From a virus: a DNA stretch of 64,000 bases. The notes beneath the pieces were generated by a model that was given only the letters and a program-made list of their open reading frames with translations, was not told where the DNA came from and did not search any database. Position 1 is the stretch's first letter. The number at the start of each line of letters is the position of its first letter. The stretch lies in the IMG/VR virus record IMGVR_UViG_3300045199_000074; one strand, written 5' to 3'. The translations under genes and the position numbers were made by a program. Below are positions 266 to 56,437 of this stretch, piece after piece.

Positions 266-1252
266 TTAAGACGTGACAGCTCTATTTAACAGGTTTAATA
301 CGATTCCCTGTACGTCTTCCGATGTCTTTTCTCGTGCAAACTTGTCCTTAATGTCTTCCAACAGGATTGAGCCGTCATCGCTTTTAGCCATTTCCATTGA
401 GCTGTTGGCATTAAGAAGATTTACAAAGGCGCTGTCGAAGTCCTTATTCGTTTCAGAACTCGGGGCTTCGCCAGGTGAGATTGCATCAATCAGCTTGCCA
501 GTGAGATCAAAGATAATTTTCTCGTGAGGGATTGCAAATTTTTCGAGTCCCCCTTTTGCTGTTAACGCAAAAACGGCTGGTTCATGATCAATTGCATCCA
601 CGTGTTGCCGAGTGATATTGCCAGGGTTAAACCAAACAGTCGTATTCGCTTTCACAACATTCTTGCGTAAATGCATGTGGCCATTCACGACTAACCTGCA
701 GCCAATGATGGCTTGAGGCGCTACAGAGCCAGGGTAAGGATTTTCAAATGCCACGTCATGATGTGTCAGCCAGATGATCTGGTCGACAGGACCAAAAAAT
801 GGTCTCGCGTCTGTTGGAAAGCTTTGACCATAGGGTGTTGCTCCTACTCCGACGATTTTGTCACCGATTTTAAACGTCTCTAAAGCGCCAGCCTTCGTGC
901 AAACCTTAAGAACACCGCTCTCTGCAATAATCGCAAGTGTGTCCGAATCTGTAAGTGTGTCATTAATCTTGTCGTGATTGCCGACGTTGGAAATTGGTGT
1001 TGTCCAGCTCTGGCGTAAAATGCGGATAAGTTTCGTTTTGAGTGCTTCGTCTTTTTCAACGGCTTCATCGAACATGTCGCCTAGAAAACAAGGTACGAAC
1101 TTTCGCTCATTGCAAAGGTTGATCACGTATTCAATTTTCTTGAGTACAGTCAGGCTGAAGTTTCTGTCCTTACGACGACCTGGCTTCTTAGAGCTGAGAT
1201 GTGGATCTCCGATAAATAGCAGTCCATCTACTTCACGAATGGTTTCAGTCAT
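266..1252 (-). CDS. Mre11/SbcD-like calcineurin-type metallophosphoesterase nuclease
   Basis: Motifs IGDPH, LGDMFD, VGNHD, THH, GHMH and NPG; start MTETIRE overlaps the end of the upstream Rad50-like gene. Confidence 0.85.
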   Translation of the reverse strand: MTETIREVDGLLFIGDPHLSSKKPGRRKDRNFSLTVLKKIEYVINLCNERKFVPCFLGDMFDEAVEKDEALKTKLIRILRQSWTTPISNVGNHDKINDTLTDSDTLAIIAESGVLKVCTKAGALETFKIGDKIVGVGATPYGQSFPTDARPFFGPVDQIIWLTHHDVAFENPYPGSVAPQAIIGCRLVVNGHMHLRKNVVKANTTVWFNPGNITRQHVDAIDHEPAVFALTAKGGLEKFAIPHEKIIFDLTGKLIDAISPGEAPSSETNKDFDSAFVNLLNANSSMEMAKSDDGSILLEDIKDKFAREKTSEDVQGIVLNLLNRAVTS

Positions 1253-3446
1253 GTGTACAGTCTTCCGTATGGCTGTGTCGAAGCAGAGATGTGGCACTTT
1301 TAATCGTACCCTGACAAAGTGGGCATGTGTTTCCCATAGAGGCGACCACTGTATTCAGTTCGTTTTCCACATTTGTCATTTCGATTTCGGTTTGGGCTAA
1401 GTTTTGTTTCGTTTTATGAACTCGTAAGGCTGCATCCTTGATTGATACGATTAGTTCATTAGGAGACTTGTTATCTACAAGATCCGGCATAATTGCTGGA
1501 AGAGAAGCAAGAACTGCGTCCCTTTCCTTGATCTTTCCCATATAAACACGTGTGTCACGAATGGATTTCCCACATTTGATCGCATCATCATTTCTGATGA
1601 TCTCTGGTGCAGATCGAGGCAGGTTCTGGAGAATGCTCAATGTCTCCGTATTTTTCTTGATCGTTTTCTCCACATCTATGATGGTCGAAAGCGTTACGTG
1701 TAATCGTTGAGTGTCATGAATTTCTGGTTCGACATCAGGCAACATTGTCAAAGCATTCACAACCTTCTTTTTATGGAAGATGTGCCTTGTATTGTCTTCA
1801 ATGTTTTGCGCAATGTTCACAAGGCGCTCACTATTGATAAGAGAAGGCCCATTTGCTGGTAAGTTGGAAAGCGCTTCAATGATTTCTGTTTTTTGAGATA
1901 CATTTTTAATGGAAGCTCTAATTTTATCCGCAATCTCAACAATTTTGGAATGTGTAGATGCTTGAAGTTCCATGCTCTTGACATCATCAACATCAGGCAA
2001 CTTACTTAACGCGTCTAGTTTTCCTGAAACCAAGGCCTTGTTCGCATCTGCTTTTTTAAGATTGTCGCAAACAATCTCCATTTTTGATGTTGCATCAGAT
2101 GTTGCCTGAAATGCGTCAAGCATGCTTTTAGCTTTTTCAATTAAGCGAACGCATTCAGGTAGCTTGTCCATTTTCTCTAGGCGATCCAGCAATTTTCCCA
2201 TTTCAGCTTCGCCTTCCTTTACCCTCGCACTATCCAAGGTGCATTGCTCCTTGTGAAGGGTCAGCATTTTGCGAATATGGCTTGCTTCTTGTCCAACAGA
2301 GAGAACCGCTGCGCGCTTTGATGCTGGCTGATTTAGCAGAAAAACAGGCTCTTTTTGTTTAATCGCGTGAATGTCCATTCCTTCAAGAGGTCCAATCTTG
2401 AATTCTGTCATGACCCATTCGGGAACGGCACGTCCACCAGTATTAAAATCTTCGCTTACAAGCGAGCCATCAGCGTTTAGATAGCGCCATCGATTAATCG
2501 GGTTGCGCTTTACCTGTCTGTCCCATGAAAGGATACGACCACCAGCAAAACCGATTTCAACTGTACAGATGCGTTCACCCCAACGGATTAGACTATCCCT
2601 TGCCTCTCCGTAGAACACGGCACGGAAAGCACGCACAAACGAGCTTTTACCGATATTGTTCGCACCGACCAGTGCATTGACGCCTGGTGTTAAATGTAAA
2701 GTCTCGTCAATATATCCCTGAAAGTTTTTTAGACGAATCCATCGAATGCCCTGTTCTTCATTGGTCCAAACATGCGGTCTAGGATTGTTTTCAACCCGTA
2801 CGCCCTCCGGGTGTTCGGGGTGGCCAGAAAGTTTAGCAATCGAAATGTCAGTGTCGAATGTCGTCACATCATGATGTGAAACAGCCAGACATTGCACACC
2901 AATTTTGCGGGCAGCATCTTTCACAACACCGTAAAATGATGGAACTCGATCCGTCGCAACCCAGCAATCGCTTTCGTCAAGAAGCAGGAAGCGGCTCATG
3001 CCTGAGCGGACAACGCCGATCATACGAAGACCAAGAGATACGAGGTTGGTCAGCGCTCCACCCTGATCTTCGTAAATGTCTTCCGAGCGATCAACAGAAC
3101 GTCGCGAAACAATATCGAGCGACGGCTGCCCTCTTTCAATTTGCAGATCGAGACCAATTGGCGCTTCATTCTGGAGAACCTCTGTCACAAGGGCTGTAAG
3201 TAGCATCTCGTAATTTGAGACCAGACGAGCGTTAGTTTCAGATTGCAATTGTTCCAGAAAATCACTGACCTTCGCCTTATTTGCCAAGCGACCCTTTGCA
3301 ACACCTACTTCATTGGTTAGTGTCTCGCGACGTCTGATCAATGACGTTTGTTCGCCGACGAGTTCTGCAATTTTTCGTTCGGCAACAGATAAATTATTTC
3401 TATAAGACAGCAGGTCGGTAAAATTTACGTTCACTTTAAATGCCAT
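1245..3446 (-). CDS. Circularly permuted Rad50/SbcC-like SMC-family ATPase
   Basis: Signature-like QGGA, Walker B FLLLDESD and H-loop VSHH come before IRLKNFQ and Walker A GANNIGKS; then coiled coil and a C-terminal CPLC zinc hook. Start MAFKV with GAGG RBS overlaps the upstream stop. Confidence 0.85.
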   Translation of the reverse strand: MAFKVNVNFTDLLSYRNNLSVAERKIAELVGEQTSLIRRRETLTNEVGVAKGRLANKAKVSDFLEQLQSETNARLVSNYEMLLTALVTEVLQNEAPIGLDLQIERGQPSLDIVSRRSVDRSEDIYEDQGGALTNLVSLGLRMIGVVRSGMSRFLLLDESDCWVATDRVPSFYGVVKDAARKIGVQCLAVSHHDVTTFDTDISIAKLSGHPEHPEGVRVENNPRPHVWTNEEQGIRWIRLKNFQGYIDETLHLTPGVNALVGANNIGKSSFVRAFRAVFYGEARDSLIRWGERICTVEIGFAGGRILSWDRQVKRNPINRWRYLNADGSLVSEDFNTGGRAVPEWVMTEFKIGPLEGMDIHAIKQKEPVFLLNQPASKRAAVLSVGQEASHIRKMLTLHKEQCTLDSARVKEGEAEMGKLLDRLEKMDKLPECVRLIEKAKSMLDAFQATSDATSKMEIVCDNLKKADANKALVSGKLDALSKLPDVDDVKSMELQASTHSKIVEIADKIRASIKNVSQKTEIIEALSNLPANGPSLINSERLVNIAQNIEDNTRHIFHKKKVVNALTMLPDVEPEIHDTQRLHVTLSTIIDVEKTIKKNTETLSILQNLPRSAPEIIRNDDAIKCGKSIRDTRVYMGKIKERDAVLASLPAIMPDLVDNKSPNELIVSIKDAALRVHKTKQNLAQTEIEMTNVENELNTVVASMGNTCPLCQGTIKSATSLLRHSHTEDCTHD
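1440..2012 (-). repeat. Intragenic ~40-aa helical repeats (LxxLPxxxPx[LI]) in the Rad50-like arm
   Basis: LSKLP, LSNLP, LTMLP, LQNLP and LASLP recur at 46, 40, 40 and 40 aa spacing; boundaries approximate. Confidence 0.7.
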
Positions 3447-3717
3447 CCTCGATAGCATTTAATTTTGACGTGATGTCATTTAAAATCGCCTCGAAATCAT
3501 CAACGCGTTTTGTATTTTCTTGATAATTCTCTAGAATTTTTTGACGAATTTCGTCTTCATTGTCTGTCCCTGCAACAGCAATGGCCTGATCTCTCGCAGC
3601 CTTTAAATCGGCTTCAGCGCGTTCCAATTCAGCACTTGTTCGAATTTTTAGATCACGAAATTTTTCGTATTTCGGACGAAGTGAATCTAAACGCGCAATA
3701 TTTTCAGAATCTTTCAT
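3436..3717 (-). CDS. Small coiled-coil protein, first gene of the SbcCD-like operon
   Basis: GGAG RBS, heptad-rich helical sequence, stop overlaps the start of the Rad50-like gene. Confidence 0.75.
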   Translation of the reverse strand: MKDSENIARLDSLRPKYEKFRDLKIRTSAELERAEADLKAARDQAIAVAGTDNEDEIRQKILENYQENTKRVDDFEAILNDITSKLNAIEDGI

Positions 3718-3838
3718 TAAAATATACTCCAATCTATTCGTTAATATCGACTGCTAGTATTAAATGTCAAAGGAAAAATGTTGATTAATTATTTATAAAT
3801 TGATTAATATAATGAAATCGAATTATGGAGGCTTAATA

Positions 3839-4429
3839 ATGCTGAACCCCGAGATTAAAAAAGAGGACAAAGAGCAGATCAATATAAAAAATGAAGCTGA
3901 CAAAGTCATATTTGATGATCTAATAGGGAGGAAGGAATGGAAAAATAGTAAGCTTGGCTATCTTAGTGGGGCCTCATTGATTGTTAATAATTTTAAAACA
4001 ATAGGCAAGACAGCTTCAAATTCTAAATCAAACATAATAACTTTGTGGTCGTCACTGTTTTCCGATTCTGATATAAAAAGCCTGCCTGATGGAGGGGATG
4101 CATCCGAAAGATTCGTAAAATCAATGTCGCTGCACAAAGTAAATGCAAATGATTTAATCAGGATTGCCGATAATACTTACAAGTCATTTTATCTTTACCT
4201 TTCTCTAACTTTGGTAGGCTTGTCGATTGGGTTTTATTCGTTATACATTTCTCCATCAAGCGATATAATTTCTTCTTTCAGCCGTTTTATTATTCTTTTT
4301 GTTTGTATTCCCTTGATGTTTAAACACTCTTACACAAATTGGATTGTCAGAAAACGAAAACTCGGAAAAGTCACTGAGTATTTAATGTCATTTGATTTCC
4401 TTCCCAAAAAAATAAAGGGCCCCAACTGA
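3839..4429 (+). CDS. IcmV/TraX-like inner-membrane protein of a type IVB secretion system
   Basis: GGAGG RBS; two C-terminal hydrophobic segments followed by YTNWIVRKRKLG; located upstream of dotA as icmV/traX are. Confidence 0.55.
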   Translation: MLNPEIKKEDKEQINIKNEADKVIFDDLIGRKEWKNSKLGYLSGASLIVNNFKTIGKTASNSKSNIITLWSSLFSDSDIKSLPDGGDASERFVKSMSLHKVNANDLIRIADNTYKSFYLYLSLTLVGLSIGFYSLYISPSSDIISSFSRFIILFVCIPLMFKHSYTNWIVRKRKLGKVTEYLMSFDFLPKKIKGPN

Positions 4430-4444
4430 GTGGGCCCCTTTATT
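4411..4444. terminator. Bidirectional intrinsic terminator between convergent genes
   Basis: AATAAAGGGCCC...GGGCCCCTTTATT inverted repeat. Confidence 0.7.
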
Positions 4445-4467
4445 TAAAATGTGAAAGACTAGACATA

Positions 4468-4713
4468 TTATTCCTTCTTCATATTATCGCACCATGAAAA
4501 TTTACTCATCGTAGTGTACTTTCGTATTATGTTAGCCTCAAAATATTTTGGGCAATCTCTGTCAAAGGCCTTCTTTTGTTCTGCCTTTATAGCTTCATTA
4601 TAAGGTGCTTCGACACGGGCTCTAGCTTCGTCAGCCTTTATGAGATATGGTATTGCGCATGCAACAGCAACACCTATTATTCCTACGACAACGTAGCTTA
4701 ATTTATTCGACAT
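4468..4713 (-). CDS. Small membrane-anchored protein
   Basis: AAGGA RBS; N-terminal hydrophobic segment YVVVGIIGVAVACAIPYL; two Cys in the C-terminal part. Confidence 0.65.
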   Translation of the reverse strand: MSNKLSYVVVGIIGVAVACAIPYLIKADEARARVEAPYNEAIKAEQKKAFDRDCPKYFEANIIRKYTTMSKFSWCDNMKKE

Positions 4714-4849
4714 AGTGAAATCCTTTCTCCAATTTCTTTTACCCTTATATTTTACAACATAATTCTTGTCAACATTATTTTCCAATTAATTTTGTTGCAT
4801 GCAAAATTTAAAGTTAATATTATTATTAATTAATAATACGGAGCTTGAT

Positions 4850-6943
4850 ATGTTCGATCTTCTAACGACACCGGGCACTACTGATATCGCCTATGATTGG
4901 ATCGGAGTGCTGTTCCCAACCAATGAGAATAGCGCTTTTGGCGCAGCTTTCCAAACATTTACGTCTATGCTTGGCATGCTTGGAGGTCTTTTTTTAGGTT
5001 GGCATGTGATAATAGGCATTGTGTCTTCTGCATATAGTGGAAAAGTTTTGGGGGATAGATTTCACCAAATTTGGGCTCCGTTACGTGTGGTCATCGGATT
5101 TGCAATGCTAATCCCATTGGGAAGCGGCTTCTCTTCGGTTCATTATATATTGAGGGATGTTATCGGTAAAGCTGCTGTCAATATGGGGAATGCTCCTATC
5201 ATAGCATACATCGATCACTTGGCCAAAAATGGTGGTGATGTTAATATGACCTCTATGGCTGGTACTTTTTTGATTAGAGAAATCATTGAACGAGAAGTCT
5301 GTGTTATAGTTCGTGATGCTATTGATAACGTATCGAAACCCCAGCTTCCTAATAGTGCTGGATTCACGGTTCCAGTGGTAGGTGGCGATTCTGATTCAGC
5401 TACTAGACATATTACTCGTTGGTCGTACGGTTCGTGTGGTTCATTCGGGTTTGAGACCGTTTATGCCGATACGGGTGTTAAATCAGCGGACAATTCAGCT
5501 ACAAGTAATCTTAATGTTGCCTACAAAGCTTTCCACGACAAGCGAGCAGTTGCCACCCAGGAAATGATAGACACACTCCGTTCTCGTGGCTTCACTCCTG
5601 AATTGCAAAAGGCACTCGGAGAGTATTTCAGTAAGAAGTCTTATAGTGAGTTAGCTTCTGCTGGAATTGCTAAGAGTTTGGAGCAAGGTGGGATCACAAT
5701 TAATGCTGTTGGTATTTTAATGAATGATCTCGGTGCTACTTGGAACTCAAAGGTTCAACAGGCAGCACGTGAAATATATAATGCTTCTGCAAGTGAGAGT
5801 AAGGACGCTTTGGCGAAGCGTATCGAGACTTATGGCTTCATGGTGGCTGGTACTTATGAACGTGAACTATCGAAAATTTCTGGAAACACATCGCGCTTAT
5901 CGAACGCTATGCCGTTCACTACTATTCCGAATCCTGGTACATCATATATTGATGCGTATCGAGCAGCTGTTGACGCGATCTATCTCAATCGTAACCTAGA
6001 TTCAGATGAGCTTCTCGCAAAAGGTGGTGCAGATATGTCTGATGGAGGTGATGCCTTAAGTTCATTGATGAATAAAATCATGCCATCAATGGATGTATTG
6101 CAAAGGAAATCTCATTTATCTAGTGACCCAGTCGGAGAGATGATATCATTTGGACACACACTTCTCGCATTTGCACAAGTTCTAATTCTGGGCGTATTAG
6201 CTGCTGTTTCACTATCTGAGGGAGGGGCTGGTAACGCTGTTGCGGCTTTCTTTGGTGCAAAGGGCGTCGCTGCTGGTCTGCAATATCTATCTCAATGGAT
6301 ATCATATTTTATTCTGATTCTGATCGTGGTGGGTGTATTACATGCATATATTTTGCCTATGATACCTATGATCATGGTTTTTGTTATGGGTATATCGTGG
6401 TTGGTTTTATTTTTGGAAGCGGCTATTGCTGGCGTTCTTTGGGCTTTTGCATTTATTCGAATGGATGGTCAAGAATTTTTTGATAGGCATCAAAGCAATG
6501 GTGTTAGCCTGCTATTCAATCTATTTTTGCGACCAGCAATTGGGATGTTAGCATTCATTGGTGGCATTATTTTGCTCCCAACGATGCTGAGAGCGTTGGA
6601 TCTGATTTGGAACGATGCATTTTATGCTCAAGCTGGTTCAGCATGGACATTTACAGGATTATTCTGGTTGGCAACGAATCTTGTTATGTATTTTTGGTTA
6701 CAATGGCACCTTACTCTCCGTCTATTCGGATTGGTTCCAACAATTGCTGATCGTGTAGGTCATTGGATGGGCTTCTCTGGTGGGCATGGTTATAACGATG
6801 GCCAAGAAACTACTGCAGCCGTTGGTGCCGCTGTCGCGGCAGGTACCGCAGTGTCGAAAGCGCCAATTAATCCTCAGGTTAATCTGGATGCGAAGAAAAA
6901 GAGAGAAAATGCCCCACCTCCTCCTCATGAAGAGGGGAAATAG
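4850..6943 (+). CDS. dotA: DotA/TraY family type IVB secretion membrane protein
   Basis: N-terminal SAYSGKVLGDRFHQIWAPLRVVIG; large periplasmic domain; C-terminal DPVGEMISFGH, YILPMIP, LEAAIAGVLWA and LFLRP motifs with multiple TM segments. Confidence 0.9.
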   Translation: MFDLLTTPGTTDIAYDWIGVLFPTNENSAFGAAFQTFTSMLGMLGGLFLGWHVIIGIVSSAYSGKVLGDRFHQIWAPLRVVIGFAMLIPLGSGFSSVHYILRDVIGKAAVNMGNAPIIAYIDHLAKNGGDVNMTSMAGTFLIREIIEREVCVIVRDAIDNVSKPQLPNSAGFTVPVVGGDSDSATRHITRWSYGSCGSFGFETVYADTGVKSADNSATSNLNVAYKAFHDKRAVATQEMIDTLRSRGFTPELQKALGEYFSKKSYSELASAGIAKSLEQGGITINAVGILMNDLGATWNSKVQQAAREIYNASASESKDALAKRIETYGFMVAGTYERELSKISGNTSRLSNAMPFTTIPNPGTSYIDAYRAAVDAIYLNRNLDSDELLAKGGADMSDGGDALSSLMNKIMPSMDVLQRKSHLSSDPVGEMISFGHTLLAFAQVLILGVLAAVSLSEGGAGNAVAAFFGAKGVAAGLQYLSQWISYFILILIVVGVLHAYILPMIPMIMVFVMGISWLVLFLEAAIAGVLWAFAFIRMDGQEFFDRHQSNGVSLLFNLFLRPAIGMLAFIGGIILLPTMLRALDLIWNDAFYAQAGSAWTFTGLFWLATNLVMYFWLQWHLTLRLFGLVPTIADRVGHWMGFSGGHGYNDGQETTAAVGAAVAAGTAVSKAPINPQVNLDAKKKRENAPPPPHEEGK

Positions 6944-6967
6944 GACTTTCAATAAGTTGTCTTGATC

Positions 6968-6992
6968 AAAAAAGGCCCTCCGGGGCCTTTTT
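6968..6992. terminator. Bidirectional intrinsic terminator
   Basis: A-run, GGCCC-TCCG-GGGCC, T-run between dotA and the convergent tRNA cluster. Confidence 0.8.
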
Positions 6993-7067
6993 CTTATGTA
7001 TGATTGTGAGGGGCATCTTTTTATGGCCACTTTGTTTAGTTAGTTTTTTAAAATAGAATTTAGGTGA

Positions 7068-7142
7068 TGGTACCGCTGAGGAGAATCGAACTCCCATTTT
7101 CTGATTGAAAATCAGACGTCCTAACCATTAGACGACAGCGAC
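7068..7142 (-). tRNA. tRNA-Glu(TTC)
   Basis: Cloverleaf; anticodon arm TCTGA-TTTTCAA-TCAGA; T-loop TTCGATT; encoded CCA. Confidence 0.9.
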
Positions 7143-7144
7143 AC

Positions 7145-7221
7145 TGGCGGCGATGACGGGAATCGAACCCGTAACCTTCTGATCGACAGTCAGATGCTCT
7201 AACCAATTGAGCTACACCACC
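7145..7221 (-). tRNA. tRNA-Asp(GTC)
   Basis: Cloverleaf; TCTGA-CTGTCGA-TCAGA; G73; encoded CCA. Confidence 0.93.
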
Positions 7222-7222
7222 G

Positions 7223-7294
7223 TACCGCCAACGGGGTTCGAACCCGTGTCACCGCCTTGAGAGGGCAGCATCCTAACCACTAGAAGATGGCGGC
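7223..7294 (-). tRNA. tRNA-Glu(CTC), no encoded CCA
   Basis: Cloverleaf; CTGCC-CTCTCAA-GGCGG; a single C separates the discriminator from tRNA-Asp. Confidence 0.9.
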
Positions 7295-7338
7295 TTATCA
7301 AGACAACTCGCCGAACCTTTCAGTCAGTTTGTTTGTTC

Positions 7339-7417
7339 TTGATGATCTATTTATTGCATATTAAAAAACTGTCGTCAATATATAAAATTCATTTTCTTTA
7401 ATATTTTCAATAACTTA
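7339..7417 (-). promoter_or_regulatory. Sigma70-type promoter of tRNA cluster 1 with an upstream IHF-like site
   Basis: TTGACG at 7378-7373; same layout as 24197-24275; TTTCAATAACTTA resembles WATCAANNNNTTR. Confidence 0.6.
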
Positions 7418-7470: not shown

Positions 7471-7524
7471 TCATTTGGTTTTGTCACGTTCTCGTTCGTC
7501 GCTATCGTCGTCGCCTTCTGGCAT
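7471..7524 (-). CDS. Putative 17-aa Asp/Glu-rich peptide MPEGDDDSDERERDKTK
   Basis: Strong AAGGAG RBS 6 nt before ATG; below the ORF-track cutoff. Confidence 0.35.
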   Translation of the reverse strand: MPEGDDDSDERERDKTK

Positions 7525-7572
7525 TGACTTCTCCTTTCTTTCTCAATCATTTCGGGTTGTAACTTGGAAAAT

Positions 7573-7596
7573 AAAAAAGGGCCGCAATTGCGACCC
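7573..7596 (-). terminator. Intrinsic terminator GGGTCGC-AATT-GCGGCCC-T6
   Basis: GC hairpin followed by T-run on the minus strand. Confidence 0.7.
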
Positions 7597-7653
7597 AAAA
7601 AAGAAATTACCTATCTTTTTAACGGCCGCGTGCTTGACGGCCGCCGATAACGG

Positions 7654-7719
7654 CTACCGCCGGGTGATATCTTCTTCCCGACGTTCTTCAGTACGAATGA
7701 TTAGTGATATGCCGTTCAT
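7654..7719 (-). CDS. Putative 21-aa leader peptide MNGISLIIRTEERREEDITRR
   Basis: TTGACT-17nt-TAAAAC promoter (7770-7742), GGAG RBS, TAG stop embedded in a hairpin. Confidence 0.5.
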   Translation of the reverse strand: MNGISLIIRTEERREEDITRR

Positions 7720-7840
7720 TTTTAACTCCAATGTTATGTATGTTTTAAATGACCCTTTAGAAACAGTCAAGTTTTTCCATTTTTCTATATGTTATTTCAT
7801 AGTTTTCTATTACATTCGCCTTGAAAGATTTGAGGTGATC

Positions 7841-9007
7841 ATGAAAATCGACATTGCAGACCCTGGCATTCATGTAATTGGTGAACTTTTATCTAGCGGC
7901 GGGTATCAATCTCGTCTCGTTGGAGGTGCTGTTCGCGATATGCTAATGGGTATGAAACCTAAAGATATGGATTTAGCGACCGATGCATTGCCAGAAATCG
8001 TAATGGAATTAGCATCTAGACAGGGTTATCGGGTGATACCAACAGGTCTTCAGCACGGCACTGTGACAATCGTTTATGATGACATCGGTTATGAAGTGAC
8101 CACTCTTCGAAAAGATGTCGACACAGACGGCCGTCATGCAACTGTGGAGTATGTCACCGATTTTGCCGAAGATGCTGCGCGTAGAGACTTCACCATTAAC
8201 GCTATGTCAGCCTCTGTTGATGGCGAAGTTTATGATTATTTTGGTGGTTTGAAGGACCTTGAGGAAGGTCGTGTCCGATTTGTAGGTGATGCACACCAGC
8301 GTATTGAAGAGGATTATCTGCGTATCCTGCGCTTCTTTCGTTTTCGAGCTCGGTTTGGAGGCGAAGAGACCGAACTCGATCTGAAGGCGATCAAAGATAA
8401 TTCCCACGGCCTTTCCGGCATCTCAGTTGAGCGTGTCTGGAGTGAAATTGATAAAATATTACAATATTCAAATGGTACAGACCAGTTGGCGTTAATGGCC
8501 GATTTGGGTGTTGCCCAGGTTGTCGGCCTCCCGATTGACGAAGACAACATCACAATTGCGCGTGATGCAAGGGAGTTTGGCGCTCGTTCATCTGTGATGT
8601 TGGGCATTCTGGCAGGAAATGAAGATTATGCTGGAAGTCTTGCAACGCGCTGGAAGTTGTCCAATTCCGAGATGAAAGATGCAGTCTTGGCGTCTCAAAT
8701 CATTGCTATTTCCGAATACGAACCCCATTACTGGATGACTCAGGCAGTAAACGGTCTTGATCCCACTGTTGCATGTCCTATTCTGTCTGCAATTGGTGCT
8801 CATGAAGCTGCAAAGGCTTTGTCTGGAGATATTCCCGTTTTCCCTCTTAAGGGGCGTGATCTCATTGGTTTAGTCGATAAAGGACCGACGATGGGAGCTG
8901 TTTTACGTGATGCCAACTCAAAGTGGATTGACTCCGGATTTAAGCTTACAAAAGAAGAGCTCATTGCCGATATTGTTAATGTTGGCCCAACTGTTGGTAG
9001 GCTGTAA
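7841..9007 (+). CDS. cca: Class II CCA-adding tRNA nucleotidyltransferase
   Basis: VGGAVRD, DMDLAT, EVTTLR, DGRH loop, RRDFTINAM and EDYLRILRFFRF motifs; start after GAGG. Confidence 0.92.
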   Translation: MKIDIADPGIHVIGELLSSGGYQSRLVGGAVRDMLMGMKPKDMDLATDALPEIVMELASRQGYRVIPTGLQHGTVTIVYDDIGYEVTTLRKDVDTDGRHATVEYVTDFAEDAARRDFTINAMSASVDGEVYDYFGGLKDLEEGRVRFVGDAHQRIEEDYLRILRFFRFRARFGGEETELDLKAIKDNSHGLSGISVERVWSEIDKILQYSNGTDQLALMADLGVAQVVGLPIDEDNITIARDAREFGARSSVMLGILAGNEDYAGSLATRWKLSNSEMKDAVLASQIIAISEYEPHYWMTQAVNGLDPTVACPILSAIGAHEAAKALSGDIPVFPLKGRDLIGLVDKGPTMGAVLRDANSKWIDSGFKLTKEELIADIVNVGPTVGRL

Positions 9008-9291
9008 TGGCGCTTAAACTTAAAAAGCCCAGTTCTAAGCCGAAAGACCAGGATGATGAGCCTTCATTTAATCCACCGAATAATTCATGTGGTATAACTC
9101 CAGCAGTTAAATTGGGGGGTCGTAGGTTCCCGCCACCACCTCTAGGAAGTGGATTCTCTGAATTTTTAGACTGGTCTTCAGATGAGAGCCTTTGTCCAAC
9201 TCCTGAACAGGAGATTTTAGCATTTAATTTATGGATCGGAATTGATATCGAAGATGTTAATCCTGATCCGACATCATCAATAAAAATGTAG
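9007..9291 (+). CDS. Hypothetical protein (Pro-rich, acidic tail ending SSIKM)
   Basis: TAATG overlap with cca. Confidence 0.65.
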   Translation: MALKLKKPSSKPKDQDDEPSFNPPNNSCGITPAVKLGGRRFPPPPLGSGFSEFLDWSSDESLCPTPEQEILAFNLWIGIDIEDVNPDPTSSIKM

Positions 9292-9402
9292 ACGAGAGTG
9301 CGTTTTAAGCAGTTTTTATTTGCGATTTAAAATCTCATTATCTATTGTTGTTTTATAATTAATAATTGCCCCTTTAATTTGGCTTGGGAGATAAAGCCTG
9401 GT

Positions 9403-9930
9403 ATGTCTATTTTAGATATATGGAAAAAATCCGCTTTAATAGATGTTGAAGCTAGCGGTTTAATGCAAGGTTCATTTCCTGTTGAAGTTGGCTGGCTTGT
9501 TGATGACGTTTTTGGTCACATGGTGATAGACCCATCGAAGCATTGGGATACATCAAAATGGGACTCTGATGCGGAGACAATGCATGGTCTTTCTCTGCAT
9601 TGGCTTTCAATGAAGGGTGTTCACCCAGTTCGTGTGGCCTCCCGATTGAACCTTTCTTTTAAAGGCAAAAAAGTATTTTCAGATTCTCCTGATGCTGATT
9701 TGAATTGGCTTAATGAACTTCATCGTGCCGCTAATGTGAAAAGAGAGTATGAAGTTGAAAGTATTGGTAAACTGCTCGGCTATTTAGGAGTTAAGGCTGA
9801 GAAAGCTTATGATATTTTTGACCAGGTTCAAGAAATAATGCCGTCAAGAGGTCGTGCTCTGGTGGGTGTCAGGTATCTAAAAACGGTAGTTGACTGTGCT
9901 ATTCGTGAGGTTGGCGGGAATGAAGTATAA
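9403..9930 (+). CDS. DEDD-family 3'-5' exonuclease-like protein
   Basis: IDVEASG...FPVEVG and ETMHGL motifs; start uncertain (9379 or 9403). Confidence 0.7.
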   Translation: MSILDIWKKSALIDVEASGLMQGSFPVEVGWLVDDVFGHMVIDPSKHWDTSKWDSDAETMHGLSLHWLSMKGVHPVRVASRLNLSFKGKKVFSDSPDADLNWLNELHRAANVKREYEVESIGKLLGYLGVKAEKAYDIFDQVQEIMPSRGRALVGVRYLKTVVDCAIREVGGNEV

Positions 9931-10222
9931 TTTTGTGATAGTTCTGCTGCTTCTCACGTCGTTTTCTTCGGTTAGCTTTGCTCAACATAAAATAACGATT
10001 ACACGTGTAGAATCACTTCGCGCTGCTCCATCGGTTGGTGTTTCTCGCGATTCACTTGAAAACATCCCTGGGACTGTTCTTGCTCCAATAGATTCAAAGC
10101 CAATGCGTCCTATTCCTGAATATGTTTACTCATTCAGGTCTATTGGTAATATTCCGATGCCGTCTCCAAATCCATTACGCGTCGAATTTTGCGAGGTTGA
10201 TATCTATCCGTTTGAAGAATGA
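9920..10222 (+). CDS. Hypothetical secreted protein
   Basis: Signal peptide MKYNFVIVLLLLTSFSSVSFA. Confidence 0.6.
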   Translation: MKYNFVIVLLLLTSFSSVSFAQHKITITRVESLRAAPSVGVSRDSLENIPGTVLAPIDSKPMRPIPEYVYSFRSIGNIPMPSPNPLRVEFCEVDIYPFEE

Positions 10223-10265
10223 TGTGCAGTTAAATACAAATTTTGAAAATTAGGATTAACCGTAA

Positions 10266-10613
10266 ATGTCGCTATCGTATGAAATAATTGGAAATGTTGT
10301 CGTAAAAAATAGAACTAGTGGGCGACAAGACTATGTTTGCCATCTAGGGGATAATATTTCAGTTGGCATCGATCAATCTGATGGCCAGCTTATTGCCCAT
10401 GGAGATATAACTAATGTTGCGAGAATTATTCAGACCGCTGAAAATTATGCTCAAAACGCATCTTCTGATGCTGGTATCAGTGTTGATTTAACTATTGTAA
10501 GCTTTCCTGCAACAGAAGAAACTGTTCTCGCCCTGAACAATGCTGTTAATGGTGTTGAAAACATTGATGCTCTGTTTGATACGGCGTATCGGGACAGCTT
10601 AGCCTTCAGGTGA
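10266..10613 (+). CDS. Hypothetical protein
   Basis: 115-aa ORF in operon orientation. Confidence 0.7.
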   Translation: MSLSYEIIGNVVVKNRTSGRQDYVCHLGDNISVGIDQSDGQLIAHGDITNVARIIQTAENYAQNASSDAGISVDLTIVSFPATEETVLALNNAVNGVENIDALFDTAYRDSLAFR

Positions 10614-10719
10614 TGTGTAGTTATTATTGTAACTTCGCATTTTTATTAATTTAGTCCACTTTTGTTGTTGATTATTTATTTATTATCGATATATTGGCCT
10701 CGAATAATAGGAGCCGATA

Positions 10720-12390
10720 TTGAGATTTTCGTCATCTAACAAGAAAGTCCCTTCATACGTTTATGTAATGATGTTCATTACATTGGCATATCTTACTATT
10801 GAAGTCCCCTTTTCTGTTTACCTTGTAAAATTTATGGGCGGCAATCCTTCAGTATCTGATGTCGATTCAATTGAATTCTTTGGTCGCATTCTGACAGGTT
10901 GCGCTGTTGCAATTTTTGTCGTTGGCACCTGTGTTCTTCCTCGTTTAAATTTCAAGAAATCGTACATCTTGACGGTTTTCTGGATTAGTGTTTCGTCCTT
11001 TATCTCGGTTTTTGGAACATTTCATTCGCTAAACTATATTGCTGATTATCTTGGTACATCCAGTTCTCCGGAAGAGCGACGGATTGCCTTTCAGACAAAC
11101 GTTGTTAAGCGTCAGATCTCTGCGCACGGCCTTGGTGGTATGGAAATATCTAATTCAAATGACTGGTTGGCTTTTGTTTCTGCAATCCCAACCCTGGGTG
11201 CAACTTCTGATGAATTGTTTGCGATGTCCAATGTTTCCAAAAGCGAAATGATTAATGATGAATCTTACCGTGCTCTGGGTGATCTTGTAGCTGCTCGTAA
11301 ATTCTTTTCTGTAGAACGCCTTTCGGCTACTCGAATAATATATGATGAGTATCAGATAGCTGTTGGTCGTTATCATGAAGCTCTTAAGGATTTAGATCGT
11401 GAGGCAAATCGTGCTTATAATACGTTTGAAGATCAGGCTCGCGTGAAATCTAACGGTCTTTGGTACTGGTACAACAAGAAGAAGAAGGCTGAAGTCGCTC
11501 GTACTGAGTTGCGCAAGCATGGTCTGGTGTTTTCGAGCAGGGAAAACCCTTTGGATCGTGACGTTTTTGGATATGTATTTGGTAAAAAGTATAAGGGAAA
11601 GGTTCTTGATACTTTTAGTAAGGGTATGATCGAAGCATTTGGTTCTAATTTGTCTCCAGACCTTGCGTTTGATGAGTTTTCAAATCATCCAGCCGTTCAT
11701 AAGAAGATACGCGCAGTTCTTCATCTGCCTAAATCTGATGTCTCATTGGATGGGGCAATGTCTGACGTAGATTTTAATCGCTTGGTTTATATACCTCTTG
11801 CAAAGAAGAATGCAGAGTTATTTTCGCGCGCCTTTGATGCTCCCGCCTCCAAGTTTGCCAACGGTGAAGAATTTGAAAAACTTGGGACCAGCGCTGTAAA
11901 AATGATACGAGTTCCAGTTATGGCCATCTTGCTCTCGATAGCAGGCGCGATGTTGCACATATATAAGTTCTCGACTTATCTCATACAGGTCTTGGCTGGC
12001 CGTGCGAAGCTTCATTTCATAAACACTGGCGTTCGTCATGCCTTTGGTTTCTCGATAATGATGGTTGCCTTCATAGGCATGGGCCTATCTGGCAACGTCG
12101 TCACCTCGAATATCGCATTTGCTCAGATTAAGAGTGATGGTCCTGTTGCTCACCTGATGCACGGCGCAATAGCAATACAGCCTGAATTTTCTAAGCTTGG
12201 TCGTGGTTTTGGTTCGATAGGACCGTGGAACCTTATAGTATCCCATTTGCCTGCCCCTGTCCTTTATAAGGACGCCAAGATTGCTAAGGGCGCAATCGCT
12301 CCTGTTTCAGAACTAGCTGTCTATGCTGAGGACGTAACACTAGAGAACATACCAGTTCCGACCCCGCGCCCAGAACGCGTGTCAAATTGA
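10720..12390 (+). CDS. Hypothetical multi-pass membrane protein with a large soluble domain
   Basis: AGGAG RBS before TTG; N- and C-terminal TM segments; ends with the alphaproteobacterial-type IPVPTPRP motif. Confidence 0.75.
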   Translation: MRFSSSNKKVPSYVYVMMFITLAYLTIEVPFSVYLVKFMGGNPSVSDVDSIEFFGRILTGCAVAIFVVGTCVLPRLNFKKSYILTVFWISVSSFISVFGTFHSLNYIADYLGTSSSPEERRIAFQTNVVKRQISAHGLGGMEISNSNDWLAFVSAIPTLGATSDELFAMSNVSKSEMINDESYRALGDLVAARKFFSVERLSATRIIYDEYQIAVGRYHEALKDLDREANRAYNTFEDQARVKSNGLWYWYNKKKKAEVARTELRKHGLVFSSRENPLDRDVFGYVFGKKYKGKVLDTFSKGMIEAFGSNLSPDLAFDEFSNHPAVHKKIRAVLHLPKSDVSLDGAMSDVDFNRLVYIPLAKKNAELFSRAFDAPASKFANGEEFEKLGTSAVKMIRVPVMAILLSIAGAMLHIYKFSTYLIQVLAGRAKLHFINTGVRHAFGFSIMMVAFIGMGLSGNVVTSNIAFAQIKSDGPVAHLMHGAIAIQPEFSKLGRGFGSIGPWNLIVSHLPAPVLYKDAKIAKGAIAPVSELAVYAEDVTLENIPVPTPRPERVSN

Positions 12391-12547
12391 TCGTCTAATC
12401 CCGAATTCTGGATAATCGACGATGACGTCATCTGCTACTTCAAGTCCGTTATCGATAGCGTGTTGTATCGCTATCTTGTGAGCTTTCGTTAGGTGTGCTC
12501 GACCCGCTCTTGTCTGAAATCAAGCTTTTTAGATAAATGAATTTTTA

Positions 12548-13015
12548 TCATGTTCCGAGTTTACGTGCATATGCGGAGTTTTGCATGTCCTCGTCTGTGT
12601 GAAATGAAAACGCTTCCGGTCTGGCCAAGTGCGGCATCATTCTGTGAAATAACGTAACCAAGCGTTCCACCAGCGCCTCATCGCGATAGGCCAATTCAAG
12701 ATCATGATCTTGAAACTTCCGGTATCCCACGCATTTCCACGGCGCTTCGAGGCAATTGAAGCGCGCGATAAATGCCGCAGGCGGCATCGGACCATCGTAA
12801 TCCCAAAGTTTTCCATCCAGAAGGACGACAGCATGGCCAACTTCATCGTTCTCGTTTACAAGACCGAATAATTCTCCGCCAATGACTGACTTTAGGGCCT
12901 GAGCAACGATAACGCAGCCACCATCGAATGGTCCACAATCAATGGTGGCCTGCAAATCGGAGTGAAATTCTTCGTCGATCAGTTTACGCTGCATGTTCCA
13001 ACTGCGAAAATTCAT
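12548..13015 (-). CDS. Hypothetical protein with a putative Cys-His-Asp triad
   Basis: GGCVIVAQAL...HAVV...WDYDG. Confidence 0.7.
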   Translation of the reverse strand: MNFRSWNMQRKLIDEEFHSDLQATIDCGPFDGGCVIVAQALKSVIGGELFGLVNENDEVGHAVVLLDGKLWDYDGPMPPAAFIARFNCLEAPWKCVGYRKFQDHDLELAYRDEALVERLVTLFHRMMPHLARPEAFSFHTDEDMQNSAYARKLGT

Positions 13016-13052
13016 CTGAACCTGCCTCTCAGTCTATCACCGTCGCTTTCAA

Positions 13053-15419
13053 TTAAAGTGAAGGGCCAGATCTGACCAAGTCATGATCCAAATGTGCTTC
13101 GTAAGCCTTACGAAGGGCAATAATATCGGCTTTCAAGGTGTCGTTGCTCTGCGTCAGACACCAATCACGGAAGCTATGAGCAAGCTCGATCTCAGCGTCA
13201 TCAGGTTGGCCTCCATCTGGTTTGCGTGTATGCGACCATGTGAATTCATTACCCTTTTCTCGTGATGCAACGATACGATCTTTCACGCTGCGCATCTGCT
13301 TCCAGAACGCATAAAATGGCAGCTTGACCTTGGTCATGTAGCCAACAGCATCTTCGATCACCAAGCCTTCCACATGCTCACCGCCAACGCGGTAGTTCAT
13401 GTCAGTAGTCGCCTTCTTGTGCCAGCCAGCGAACGAAGCAGCATTCTGGAATGTCATCGCTAGCTTCTTCGTTTCGAGACCAAACTTTCGGCCAACAGCC
13501 TCGACCACGCTGAAACCTGCCTTCTCAAAACTTTCCGAACGACGAATAATATCGAGCAAAACTATTTTTGGTTTATCGTACTCGATCATGTGAGGGTCAT
13601 TGAGCGGATCAATCACTTCCCACGTCATCGAAGATTCTGTATCACGAAGATAGCGACGGATTTTCTCCAACTGAACGGCGCTCAGCTGGTTAATTGCAAT
13701 ATTCTTGAAAATATCAGCGAAATCACCATCTGGCGTGGATTTTGAAGCGATAAACAAGCTGTCTGTCTTTTCATCGTAACCCATATTTCCAAGGAAACCG
13801 TTATATTTCACGTAAAGTTTGATCGGGAATTGCATGTTTTTGGCAAGGTTTGCTATTTCAGTTTCTTCCCGTTCGCCCACATTGAAAAATTTATCGTATC
13901 CACGAGAAACTATTTTGCTCGTTTTCCGTTCAAGAAAAAGCCCGCGCGCCTTCACAACAACATCATCCCAAGAACGGTCAAAAAACACCTTCTTGGTGAA
14001 ATTAAGCGAATATACATGCGGGAATCGTTCGCTCGACTTTTCTCGAACGCCTTCATGTTCATGCATAGACTTCAGGAGACTTGAATCCATCTCTGTCGAT
14101 TTTCCGTCAGGATTGATAATCCAATGGGGCAGCATTTTACGTTGAGCCTTTCTAACTTCTGTAATCCTGGTTTCGAGAGCCAGTCGCTCCTTGAGTGGTC
14201 GATAGACATGGTTCTTGAATGCTTTGGTGTTCCAACCATTGCCATCGAGAATGCAAATTCGCAGATTGCCGCCGTGTTCGACTGAGTCTTCGAGATTGAA
14301 CGAGTGTTCGGTGGCCGCAATATCAACATTGCCGTGATTGCGGTGTCCGTGAACCTGGAAACCTCGCTTGCTGTTGCGCTCGAACTGCTCATCAATCGGG
14401 TCTTCCCAGTGGCCTGTGCCATGGGAATATTGATTCAGAGAAATCAGGTGAGGCTTATCGGGGAATGTGCTTAATCCTGCGTGGGTAACGAGAACCTCAG
14501 CGCCCTTGAAGCTGTACTGGAGAAATTCCTTAGCCTTCTGACATACGGCTTCAGCATCAGCAGGAGTTATGCCTGCTTCGATAAGCTGCGGAAGCGTTCT
14601 GAGGGCGAACTCTCCACTTTTTGCATCTTCACCACGCGCCCAACGGTCGAGATGATCTTCATGATTGCCCCATAGAAGGGTGACGTTCTCCCTGTGAAGA
14701 GCATTGTCGACGAACCAGCGCATCACTTTGCCGTTTTCGATGCCTCGATCAAGCAGGTCTCCCACAAAGACGTACTTGTAGTCGTCATCAAAACCATTCG
14801 CGAGTGGCCCGCCTTCTCCCGCCAATACGGTGAAGCAACCTTGCAGGTCTCCAATGTGAATTACGCCCTTATAGCGGTCGCTAAAGTCATGAACGGGCTC
14901 ACGTAGCCACGCATCCAGTTCACTTATGTGACTACCGTCTTCCTTGCCGTTAATAATTGTAATGCCATCGACATCGTCTCTTATGCCAGCTTCGATGAGC
15001 TGTGCATGCATTTCTCTAACTCTGAACTCAGAAACCCGGTTAACTTCCTGGCGTTCACTGTTTCGTTTCAACGCCAATTCTACTGGAATTGAAGACATAT
15101 CAAGAACAGCGATTTCATACCGATGTGGTTTTGCCATATCAGCTAAACGCTTCAAGTTTGAACGTTCTATGAGCGTCGTGTCTATTGCTAGTGTCTCCCC
15201 TCTAGACATCCGCTCCGATGCGAATTGATTAAGCATCGCGAAAGCTCTCTCATTGACATCCTGATTAACGATCATTTGCCCTTCGCTTGTCAGGAATGGT
15301 GCCGCGATTGTCGATCTGATATTGTCGGCGGACAGCGTCCATTGCTCTATCCCTATTGCCTTGAGAGCGTGTGACTTTCCAGATCCAGGTTGGCCGCGCG
15401 TGATTATTAATTTTCTCAT
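13053..15419 (-). CDS. Trifunctional RNA repair enzyme: polynucleotide kinase + metallophosphoesterase + Rnl1-type RNA ligase
   Basis: P-loop GQPGSGKS; GDLQG, GDLLDRG, GNHE; ligase motifs KFFN, KYNG, EGLV and KVK. Confidence 0.88.
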   Translation of the reverse strand: MRKLIITRGQPGSGKSHALKAIGIEQWTLSADNIRSTIAAPFLTSEGQMIVNQDVNERAFAMLNQFASERMSRGETLAIDTTLIERSNLKRLADMAKPHRYEIAVLDMSSIPVELALKRNSERQEVNRVSEFRVREMHAQLIEAGIRDDVDGITIINGKEDGSHISELDAWLREPVHDFSDRYKGVIHIGDLQGCFTVLAGEGGPLANGFDDDYKYVFVGDLLDRGIENGKVMRWFVDNALHRENVTLLWGNHEDHLDRWARGEDAKSGEFALRTLPQLIEAGITPADAEAVCQKAKEFLQYSFKGAEVLVTHAGLSTFPDKPHLISLNQYSHGTGHWEDPIDEQFERNSKRGFQVHGHRNHGNVDIAATEHSFNLEDSVEHGGNLRICILDGNGWNTKAFKNHVYRPLKERLALETRITEVRKAQRKMLPHWIINPDGKSTEMDSSLLKSMHEHEGVREKSSERFPHVYSLNFTKKVFFDRSWDDVVVKARGLFLERKTSKIVSRGYDKFFNVGEREETEIANLAKNMQFPIKLYVKYNGFLGNMGYDEKTDSLFIASKSTPDGDFADIFKNIAINQLSAVQLEKIRRYLRDTESSMTWEVIDPLNDPHMIEYDKPKIVLLDIIRRSESFEKAGFSVVEAVGRKFGLETKKLAMTFQNAASFAGWHKKATTDMNYRVGGEHVEGLVIEDAVGYMTKVKLPFYAFWKQMRSVKDRIVASREKGNEFTWSHTRKPDGGQPDDAEIELAHSFRDWCLTQSNDTLKADIIALRKAYEAHLDHDLVRSGPSL

Positions 15420-15568
15420 TTTTCTTTTCTATATTTATTCCGTTTTCGTGATAATAATTATAGATATCTTTGCAAGAGCCAAGCCCAAATAAGTTGACAT
15501 TTTTATTTTTTAATAGAATTATTGCTTAATTAAAGCGAGCCTCGTTTTTCGTGTCGGGAGTTTATTGA

Positions 15569-16396
15569 ATGAGCAGAGTGGATGACGTCCTTGGTGATGA
15601 GATCAAGGCACATGAAAAATTGAATTCGGATCGTGCGGCAAATATCGGTGATCCTGTAGTGATACGTGTTGACGGCGCTTCATTTTCCAAGTTTACGCGC
15701 AATGCATCAAAACCATTTGATGAACGCATTTCTGCTGCAATGGTTCACGCAACAAAATCTACTGTTGATGAATTTAATTGCCGTTTAGGCTATACGCAGT
15801 CTGATGAAATCAGTTTTTTGCTTTATAGCTCTGATCAGGAACTCCCTTTAAGTGGTCGTTATGAAAAATTGGCAAGCCGTTTTGCGGCACACGTAACTGC
15901 TCATTTCTTGAAAAAGGGTCTTGAGTTATTTCCTGAGCTAATTGGAGAAAGGCTTCCTTCTTTTGACGGCCGTGCAATGTCTTTTCCAACATTAGATTTG
16001 GCCGCCAAAGCAATCCTATGGCGTGAACTTGATGCTCGGAGAAATGCCGTCAGCATGGCTGCGCGTTCTGTCTTTTCGCCAAATGAACTTAGTGGGCGAT
16101 CATCATGGGAACAGCGAAAAATGATGTCTGCACGCGGTCTGGAATTCGACGACTTTCCAGAAACTTTCAGGCGCGGCGCTTTTGTTCGGCGGGTGAAGGT
16201 AGTGAGAGAATTGACGGTAGAGGAGCTGTCTCGGATTCCTGAAAAACACCGACCAAATGGGCCAGTTGAACGCTCAAGTATCGAGCAGGTTACTATGCCT
16301 AATTTGTCTCTTGTTGATAATCTTGCCGATGTCCTTGTTTTCAATGCTGATCCTATCGTCGCGGAACGCAAGTTTGCATTAGCCGTTACGGGGTAA
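15569..16396 (+). CDS. Thg1-like 3'-5' RNA polymerase (tRNA-His guanylyltransferase family)
   Basis: RVDGASFSKFT, YTQSDEISF, FDGR and WRELDARRN motifs. Confidence 0.9.
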   Translation: MSRVDDVLGDEIKAHEKLNSDRAANIGDPVVIRVDGASFSKFTRNASKPFDERISAAMVHATKSTVDEFNCRLGYTQSDEISFLLYSSDQELPLSGRYEKLASRFAAHVTAHFLKKGLELFPELIGERLPSFDGRAMSFPTLDLAAKAILWRELDARRNAVSMAARSVFSPNELSGRSSWEQRKMMSARGLEFDDFPETFRRGAFVRRVKVVRELTVEELSRIPEKHRPNGPVERSSIEQVTMPNLSLVDNLADVLVFNADPIVAERKFALAVTG

Positions 16397-16399
16397 ATT

Positions 16400-18367: not shown

Positions 18368-18370
18368 ACA

Positions 18371-56308: not shown

Positions 56309-56437
56309 GATAATTCTCCAAAATTGATGGGTTCAGCAGCCGCAGCAATACGGAGACCTTACTCCTTTCTCATAATTCTTAATCGAGTTCAATGATTTAT
56401 TTGAAAAACCGCTAATTTCTGTGACAATAGTCGAAAA

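Follow-up and report, generated by a model that had tools for sequence, protein, structure and literature searches.

How can an ATPase of the Mre11-Rad50 (SbcCD) type work when the two halves of its head stand in swapped order in the chain? This question is raised by three genes in a stretch of 64,000 nucleotides (nt) from IMG/VR virus record IMGVR_UViG_3300045199_000074, hereafter the window, in which the number of ambiguous bases (N) is 0. An earlier note, made from the sequence alone, had described these genes as an SbcCD-like operon with a circularly permuted Rad50. In canonical Rad50/SbcC the order is Walker A, coil, CxxC hook, coil, signature and Walker B. The three genes overlap as was noted then, and all lie on the minus strand (sizes in amino acids, aa):

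3436..3717, minus strand: small helical subunit gene, 93 aa, overlapping the start of the ATPase gene by 11 nt
1245..3446, minus strand: permuted Rad50/SbcC-type ATP-binding cassette (ABC) ATPase gene, 733 aa, with return coil, C-lobe, linker, N-lobe, arm and CxxC
266..1252, minus strand: Mre11/SbcD-type metallophosphoesterase gene, 328 aa, overlapping the ATPase stop by 8 nt

Our analysis leans towards a Mre11-Rad50 (SbcCD)-type module of proteobacterial megaplasmids in which the C-lobe precedes the N-lobe and the chain probably goes back to the re-fusion of an SbcC split in three. The likely task of the module is the processing of DNA ends for plasmid recombination or repair, and we predict that the small protein takes the place of part of the missing arm.

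Order of the motifs and identity of the two halves

The motifs of the ATPase are found, from the N- to the C-terminus, at residues 128 (QGGA), 153 (FLLLDESD), 189 (VSHH), 237 (IRLKNFQ), 261 (GANNIGKS) and 708 (CPLC). The swap of the head halves is as first described, with QGGA, FLLLDESD and VSHH (128-192) preceding IRLKNFQ and GANNIGKS (237-268) in one chain. The hook is also near the C-terminus, its first cysteine being 25 residues from the end and not about 20 as given then. The features of the head, all on the minus strand, are as follows:

3177..3422, minus strand: head-proximal return coil, residues 9-90, normally just N-terminal to the C-lobe; model helices 9-55 and 57-90; aligns with the N-terminal coil of stand-alone C-halves
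3057..3065, minus strand: degenerate ABC signature QGG, residues 128-130; G129 and G130 invariant in 114 aligned sequences
2973..2990, minus strand: Walker B FLLLDE, residues 153-158, then the family-specific SDCW; D157, E158, D160, C161 and W162 invariant
2871..2882, minus strand: H-loop VSHH, residues 189-192; S190 and H191 invariant
2742..2822, minus strand: junction of old C-terminus and old N-terminus, residues 209-235; frame open in all aligned homologues; predicted local distance difference test (pLDDT) of the block 93-97
2643..2666, minus strand: Walker A GANNIGKS, residues 261-268; AAA_23 and AAA_15 above cut-off; Rad50 N-lobe E 6.2e-9

Searched separately, the two halves gave different results. 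Residues 234 onward matched AAA_23 and AAA_15 above the cut-off and archaeal Rad50 models weakly, up to residue 714; the Walker A-bearing N-lobe was also recognised by Rad50 5f3w (E 6.2e-9). Residues 1-227 alone gave no match in Pfam, NCBIfam or PDB sequences and match no family directly; as they are blank in direct sequence searches, the identity of the C-lobe rests on profile chains and a fold search. In PHROGs, residues 15-203 match phrog_15167 (E 8.7e-8) and residues 233-718 match phrog_16465 (E 2e-23), two halves which that collection keeps as separate families. The profile of the fused family matched stand-alone phage and plasmid C-halves (98.3%, 183 columns), and profile comparison of these split C-halves with the Rad50 C-lobe gave E 1.3e-11, their equivalent GG aligning to LSGG of Rad50.

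The AlphaFold2 model of the ATPase (114 sequences) has a mean pLDDT of 85, a predicted template modelling score of 0.58 and blocks of 73-98 over residues 11-480. Foldseek with this model found the Rad50 N-lobe chain 1ii8_A and the C-lobe chains 1f2u_B, 1f2t_B and 1ii8_B, the lobe identity of the chains being taken from separate Rad50 N-lobe and C-lobe sequence matches; for 1f2u_B the template modelling score by target is 0.68 and the root-mean-square deviation (rmsd) 4.0. By this indirect route through profiles and models, the first half of the ATPase is the Rad50 C-lobe with signature, Walker B and H-loop, and its fit to the C-terminal head of SMC/Rad50 proteins agrees with what the earlier note had proposed. 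Both lobes are predicted to fold into one normal ABC head, with an ordered linker of about 25 residues between them.

Conservation and distribution of the permuted order

A homologue search with ATPase residues 1-400 found 339 proteins at E<=0.001, and the order of motifs was read in the 120 listed. In every one of these 120 Walker B comes before Walker A (119 by pattern and P0030 by alignment). The chain ends in CxxC in 118 of them, 113 by pattern and five as CTVC; the other two look truncated. Of 92 relatives confirmed in the genome scan 80 were kept as loci, a redundant set that includes 49 from Microvirga and 16 from Methylobacterium. In all 80 the small gene is upstream, followed by the fused ATPase. 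The full trio, s > C::N > D (s, small gene; C and N, the two ATPase halves; D, nuclease; ::, fusion), is present in 75, which bears out the linkage of the trio expected in relatives; three of the five incomplete loci end at a contig edge, one is frameshifted and one has a broken nuclease. Among metagenome loci 58 of 79 carry the full trio and most of the remainder are cut short. An assembly artefact or chance fusion was considered and is ruled out by the same order in 120/120 listed homologues and 80/80 genome loci.

Twenty-one proteobacterial plasmids, ranging in size from 253 kb to 1.32 Mb, gave matches across the ATPase junction, with hosts in Rhizobium, Bosea, Acidiphilium, Methylorubrum, Variovorax, Vibrio, Pseudomonas (including pMPPla107), Aeromonas and Alteromonas; the trio is present in seven of the eight such plasmids examined closely. 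Within the Microvirga genus sample 26 of 31 genomes have the fused gene, vs three of 61 in the family sample, and the trio seems domesticated in Microvirga and Methylobacterium. In Microvirga sp. VF16 it is on the chromosome. Many contigs of the Microvirga and Methylobacterium loci (L003-L076) break about 2.2 kb upstream of the trio, suggesting a repeat there.

Several searches gave little or nothing. A genome scan with a single ATPase protein as query gave no match. Close stand-alone C-halves were represented only by P0121, with an apparently frameshifted tail. With three queries the fused form was found neither in alignments to viral contigs nor in tblastn of annotated phages, where only N-halves matched, in three records. 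Among the Atlas feature neighbours are viral clusters of 609-672 aa in which the domain order is not visible. Canonical SbcC was not found over the cut-off in five of five host genomes, but that cut-off passes only one of 14 controls.

A split sister family and the origin of the permuted chain

Two plasmids of Clostridium and the Bacillus phage 0305phi8-36 were matched over the N-half only. They carry the nuclease fused to an N-half that ends in CxxC, together with a gene of about 90 aa and, nearby, a separate C-half, which in the C. perfringens plasmid is just outside the stretch examined. A viral scan with split-family C-halves, in which 80 of 84 loci were kept, gave the order N>s>C>D in 51 loci, N>D>s>C in seven, D::N>s>C in five and partial or other orders in 17; a fused C::N ATPase was present in none of the 80. 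This split family occurs in Firmicute-type phages and megaplasmids, with the N-half ending in CxxC, the small protein, the C-half and the nuclease encoded as separate genes. The order N>s>C is that of the canonical protein cut after the hook and then again within the return strand. The split order N>D>s>C and the order s>C>N>D of the window are identical as circular orders.

Thinning at 62% identity left 49 of 226 sequences for a head-region tree (308 columns, three canonical outgroups). Support was 98 for the fused clade, 99 for the split clade and 100 for both together, and the N>D>s>C forms branch first within the split clade. N-half, C-half and small protein of the three-piece SbcC all have homologues in the window, the small-protein link being moderate (88.5%), but the two halves are fused and not on separate genes, both in the window and in 80/80 genome loci. 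Since C-half and N-half are separate in the split sister family, the permuted chain likely arose by re-fusion of a three-piece SbcC. Tree and gene orders would fit a course of fission, operon permutation and one re-fusion. The earlier note had placed a permutation near the hook; the break does lie just after the hook, and is better read as the joining of two gene pieces in an SbcC family that had been split before.

Some loci carry single pieces. A 485-kb uncultured phage (L084) has a stand-alone N-half with repeats and hook (5989-7356) beside RecA and thymidylate synthase-like genes; its nuclease (10180-11157) is 3 kb from the N-half, and no C-half is present within the 12 kb examined. The C-half genes of L099 (4501-5151) and L100 (4339-5007) have no N-half or small gene within 4.5 kb, and each precedes an ATP-binding protein of about 610 aa, likewise found in L095 and L097.

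Arm, zinc hook and small helical protein

Two further features, also on the minus strand, belong to the arm of the ATPase:

1383..1862, minus strand: four 40-aa LP..P repeats of the arm, residues 529-688; copy number varies among homologues
1314..1325, minus strand: CPLC zinc-hook motif, residues 708-711, then a His-containing tail; C708 and C711 invariant in 114 sequences

The CxxC is invariant but terminal, whereas the zinc hook of Rad50 is the apex of the arm. The tail after CxxC (window 1245-1313, minus strand) is His-rich, with HxH and an H726 that is nearly invariant in alphaproteobacterial copies, and could supply extra zinc ligands. In the model the return coil has about 82 residues (9-90) vs 96 residues for the first outgoing helix (386-481). 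The arm from head to hook has 326 residues, so that the return strand is shortened as first suggested and an intramolecular antiparallel coiled coil of full length is absent. Among 114 scorable homologues the arm has 206 residues (42 sequences), 241-250 (47), 282-296 (17), 326 (7) or 366 (1), and the shortest arms, of 166-170 aa, occur in three loci. The arm thus lengthens by 40 aa at a time (206/246/286/326/366 in this set, and 166-366 aa overall), and the small protein remains at about 93 aa. The repeats are well separated from chance (mean pair score 26 vs -31+/-5; 0/5000 shuffles) and are modelled, with lower confidence, as 28-residue helices broken by loops.

The AlphaFold2 model of the small protein (pLDDT 96) has helices 2-49 and 54-92 with a four-residue turn between them, and a conserved G-T-D turn joins the two. 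It superposes end to end on straight coiled-coil helices in nearly all matches (83-89 of 93 residues, rmsd about 4-7 A). Its VIA matches are generic long helices with Z up to 6.5 and inform on shape only, and Foldseek found no match for it. The protein is thus predicted to be one long kinked helix, extended and not folded back. Its family has 675 cluster representatives at E<=0.001 and 169 at 1e-10; the 150 listed are almost all stand-alone, with 66-186 aa. Its profile matches that of the split-family small proteins at 88.5% (E 2.7e-6). Once 17 loci with too little upstream DNA were dropped, the system gene ahead of the C-half was the small gene in 153 of 155 fused loci, counting the window, and in 77 of 86 split ones; among the nine split loci without a small-gene match, five have a similar 80-106-aa open reading frame (ORF) in the same place, as judged by eye.

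The models make the small protein a candidate piece of the missing return strand. The lengths agree in the shortest homologues, where 82+93 matches the arm of 166. The enzyme might also process DNA ends with the small protein as a separate cofactor or homodimeric spacer, the entire distal arms of two ATPases then forming a parallel coiled coil with the zinc site at its end. Such an arrangement would account for a small-protein length that is independent of the repeat number, for the small protein being fused to neither half in the 150 listed representatives or the locus census, and for the lack of a sequence or specific fold match of the small protein to Rad50. It is nevertheless rather unlikely, as most split loci have the small gene in its collinear place, with the N-half before it and the C-half after it, and the protein models as an extended helix whose length closes the gap in the shortest homologues. 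In a mutual-information analysis of covariation (213 paired loci, effective number 116) the invariant columns prevailed, and a clean antiparallel signal was missing even from the control pair.

Nuclease, neighbouring genes and likely function

The window nuclease has the five metal-binding motifs of metallophosphoesterases (DPH, GD, GNHD, HHD and GHMH) and its gene is adjacent to that of the ATPase, both features of Mre11/SbcD, in agreement with the Mre11-like partner first proposed. Its profile matches are to Metallophos (E 0.0016, below cut-off) and to the SbcD-like phrog_100 (E 5.8e-4). Of 147 fused loci 133 passed the motif check. In five copies on gammaproteobacterial megaplasmids the gene persists with its metal motifs lost, and most other failures are truncations or pattern variants. 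The motif-dead Mre11-like genes, behind ATPases with recognisable motifs, are:

L085, 6709-7632
L086, 6998-7870
L088, 6704-7510
L090, 6878-7651
L092, 6655-7596

The loss of metal motifs in these five copies implies that cutting is not needed everywhere. They would suit a core job independent of the nuclease, namely that of a clamp or tether, driven by ATP, for DNA ends or for the organisation of the megaplasmid, with the Mre11 fold as a dimer scaffold; we regard this as very unlikely, since the window nuclease and the 133 loci above pass the motif check.

Genes next to the trio on the plasmids examined closely include UvrD, topoisomerase, RecQ, RecJ and LigD, and the ORF scan of trio loci added RecD2, RusA and an exonuclease. 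Of the 68 neighbouring ORFs scanned, most are without a Pfam match and only one has a restriction-type domain. Phage relatives sit in replication/recombination modules with a Holliday-junction resolvase and a helicase nearby. The chemistry of SbcCD and T4 gp46/gp47 is known (PMC3175470, PMC5105663, PMC7824862). By analogy with it, DNA-end processing for recombination or repair of the element would be the likeliest role.

A role in DNA surveillance, offered in the earlier note, gains little support, as defence-library matches are weak and near Walker A and the neighbours are recombination and repair genes. In a Lamassu-like system the ATPase would sense foreign DNA ends or hairpins and free the nuclease, protecting the megaplasmid or host from phages or rival plasmids. 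The three-gene layout (SMC-like ATPase, nuclease, small protein) on mobile elements, the presence in 26/31 Microvirga genomes vs 3/61 in the wider family sample and a weak LmuB match in PADLOC (E 3.2e-5) speak for it. The PADLOC matches of the ATPase are generic, weak and almost all within the Walker A region, the nuclease and small protein match no PADLOC family at E<=0.1, and the single restriction-type domain among the neighbours and the setting of the phage relatives add to what makes this role unlikely.

Proposed mechanism and points against it

On the preferred reading, a DNA-end-processing module with a re-fused ATPase, residues 9-90 would pair antiparallel with 386-481, as in Rad50, and the small protein would continue the return strand along the next stretch of the arm. 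Two ATPases would dimerise through ATP at the heads and through zinc at the terminal CxxC, the unpaired repeats may zip against those of the partner ATPase, and ATP-driven closure of the heads on a DNA end would license the nuclease.

Several observations weigh against this reading. About 160 residues of the window arm, the four 40-aa repeats, are without a partner. With arms of 166 to 366 aa and a small protein of about 93 aa throughout, a one-to-one return strand cannot hold for the window ATPase. The return strand in trans of the earlier note is partly supported: the small protein could cover about 90 residues, enough to close the gap in the shortest homologues, but the repeats here are left over, and their partner must be a second ATPase, one another or further copies of the small protein. 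The helix pairing is deduced and not read from model coordinates, and the nuclease and ATPase activities of the trio are assigned by analogy. The link between the two small-protein families is only moderate (88.5%), helical proteins match easily, and single-sequence comparisons between the families gave no match. The small gene sits after the ATPase in metagenome locus L247, and plasmid copy L088 is without a small-gene match. The ATPase signature is without the canonical serine, Q, N, K or E being found there in homologues. Fused and split forms are sisters and not nested, in a tree with only three distant outgroups and 49/226 sequences. The motif-dead nucleases count on the same side.

A wider reading, possible but tentative, is that of an SMC/Rad50 branch with an arm built from separate chains. 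The outgoing strand would be extended by 40-aa modules to a terminal zinc clasp, and one or several 93-aa subunits would give the return strand in trans, their number setting arm length and head-to-hook coupling; the system would have passed from phages to megaplasmids, been re-fused in permuted form in Proteobacteria and become near-core in Microvirga.

Setting of the trio in the window

The window looks like part of a megaplasmid, and the nearest named relative of the locus in the genome scan is a 1.19-Mb Mesorhizobium contig (75% identity). A domain scan of the context took in 49 ORFs. Adjoining the trio at 3800-6943 (plus strand) are DotA/TraY (E 5e-70) and a weak IcmV-like match (E 7e-5), a type IVB conjugation-like locus. 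Window 16400-63221 encodes a near-complete DNA toolkit of its own: UvrD, MutL, RecA, RNase H, RecD2, GyrB, dUTPase, DHFR, thymidylate synthase, class Ib ribonucleotide reductase with NrdI, a C5 methylase and a sigma-70 factor. Apart from this toolkit, the same stretch has genes for a class A penicillin-binding protein and a Bax-inhibitor-like protein. An RNA repair set at 7475-19168 and 54863-57604 comprises a CCA-adding or poly(A) polymerase-like protein, a kinase-phosphoesterase-RNA ligase fusion, Thg1 and NUDIX, with RtcB and an ADP-ribosylglycohydrolase following further along. This set recalls the counter-defence kits of jumbo phages.

Comparison with known systems

A full-text literature search, at the level of listings and abstract openings, found no description of a permuted or three-piece Rad50; the ABC-ATPase classification of Krishnan 2020, which possibly covers such forms, lies outside it. 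The trio is apparently an undescribed but real and conserved architecture of a known enzyme class. By definition a Rad50 or SMC protein is one chain folding back at hook or hinge, and ring-to-rod changes of the arm are linked to DNA-end sensing (PMC7752040). With its lobes swapped, its hook terminal, a return strand of about one quarter the length and a helical subunit that is detachable, the trio, a widespread natural variant, makes the need for a continuous antiparallel arm testable, and a multi-chain arm, if true, would be a natural dissection of Rad50 arm signalling. The results also give a likely function to two 'hypothetical' gene groups, the small protein and the stand-alone C-half, and mark a DNA-processing module common to megaplasmids such as pMPPla107.

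Lamassu (LmuA/B/C) is likewise made of an SMC-like ATPase, a nuclease and a small third gene on mobile DNA, and the lobes of LmuB run in canonical order. The window trio shares that layout; of the Lamassu profiles only LmuB matches, weakly as given above, and LmuA and LmuC do not.

The split SbcC of Bacillus phage 0305phi8-36, phBC6A51, vB_BboS-125 and Firmicute megaplasmids (PHROGs 16465/15167) has the same four parts, a hook-terminated N-half, a small gene preceding the C-half and the position of sister clade. Its halves are separate or its N-half is fused to the nuclease, whereas in the window the C-half is fused ahead of the N-half. For 0305phi8-36 a nuclease-ATPase fusion without one P-loop segment has been reported (PMC3175470), the passages concerned making no mention of a separate C-half or small gene.

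With Mre11-Rad50/SbcCD (P. furiosus and M. jannaschii Rad50, E. coli SbcCD, T4 gp46/gp47, T5 D13/D12) the trio shares the Rad50-type ABC head, a CxxC ending a long helical arm and an adjacent metallophosphoesterase with five motifs. It differs in the swapped lobes within one chain, a hook that is terminal and not central, a return strand of about 82 aa, the extra small gene, an arm of 40-aa proline-broken repeats and the QGG signature; the one-chain order of N-lobe, coil, hook, coil and C-lobe is absent from its ATPase. Overall, we infer that the window trio works like Mre11-Rad50, with neither the single-chain order nor the full coiled coil of that enzyme.

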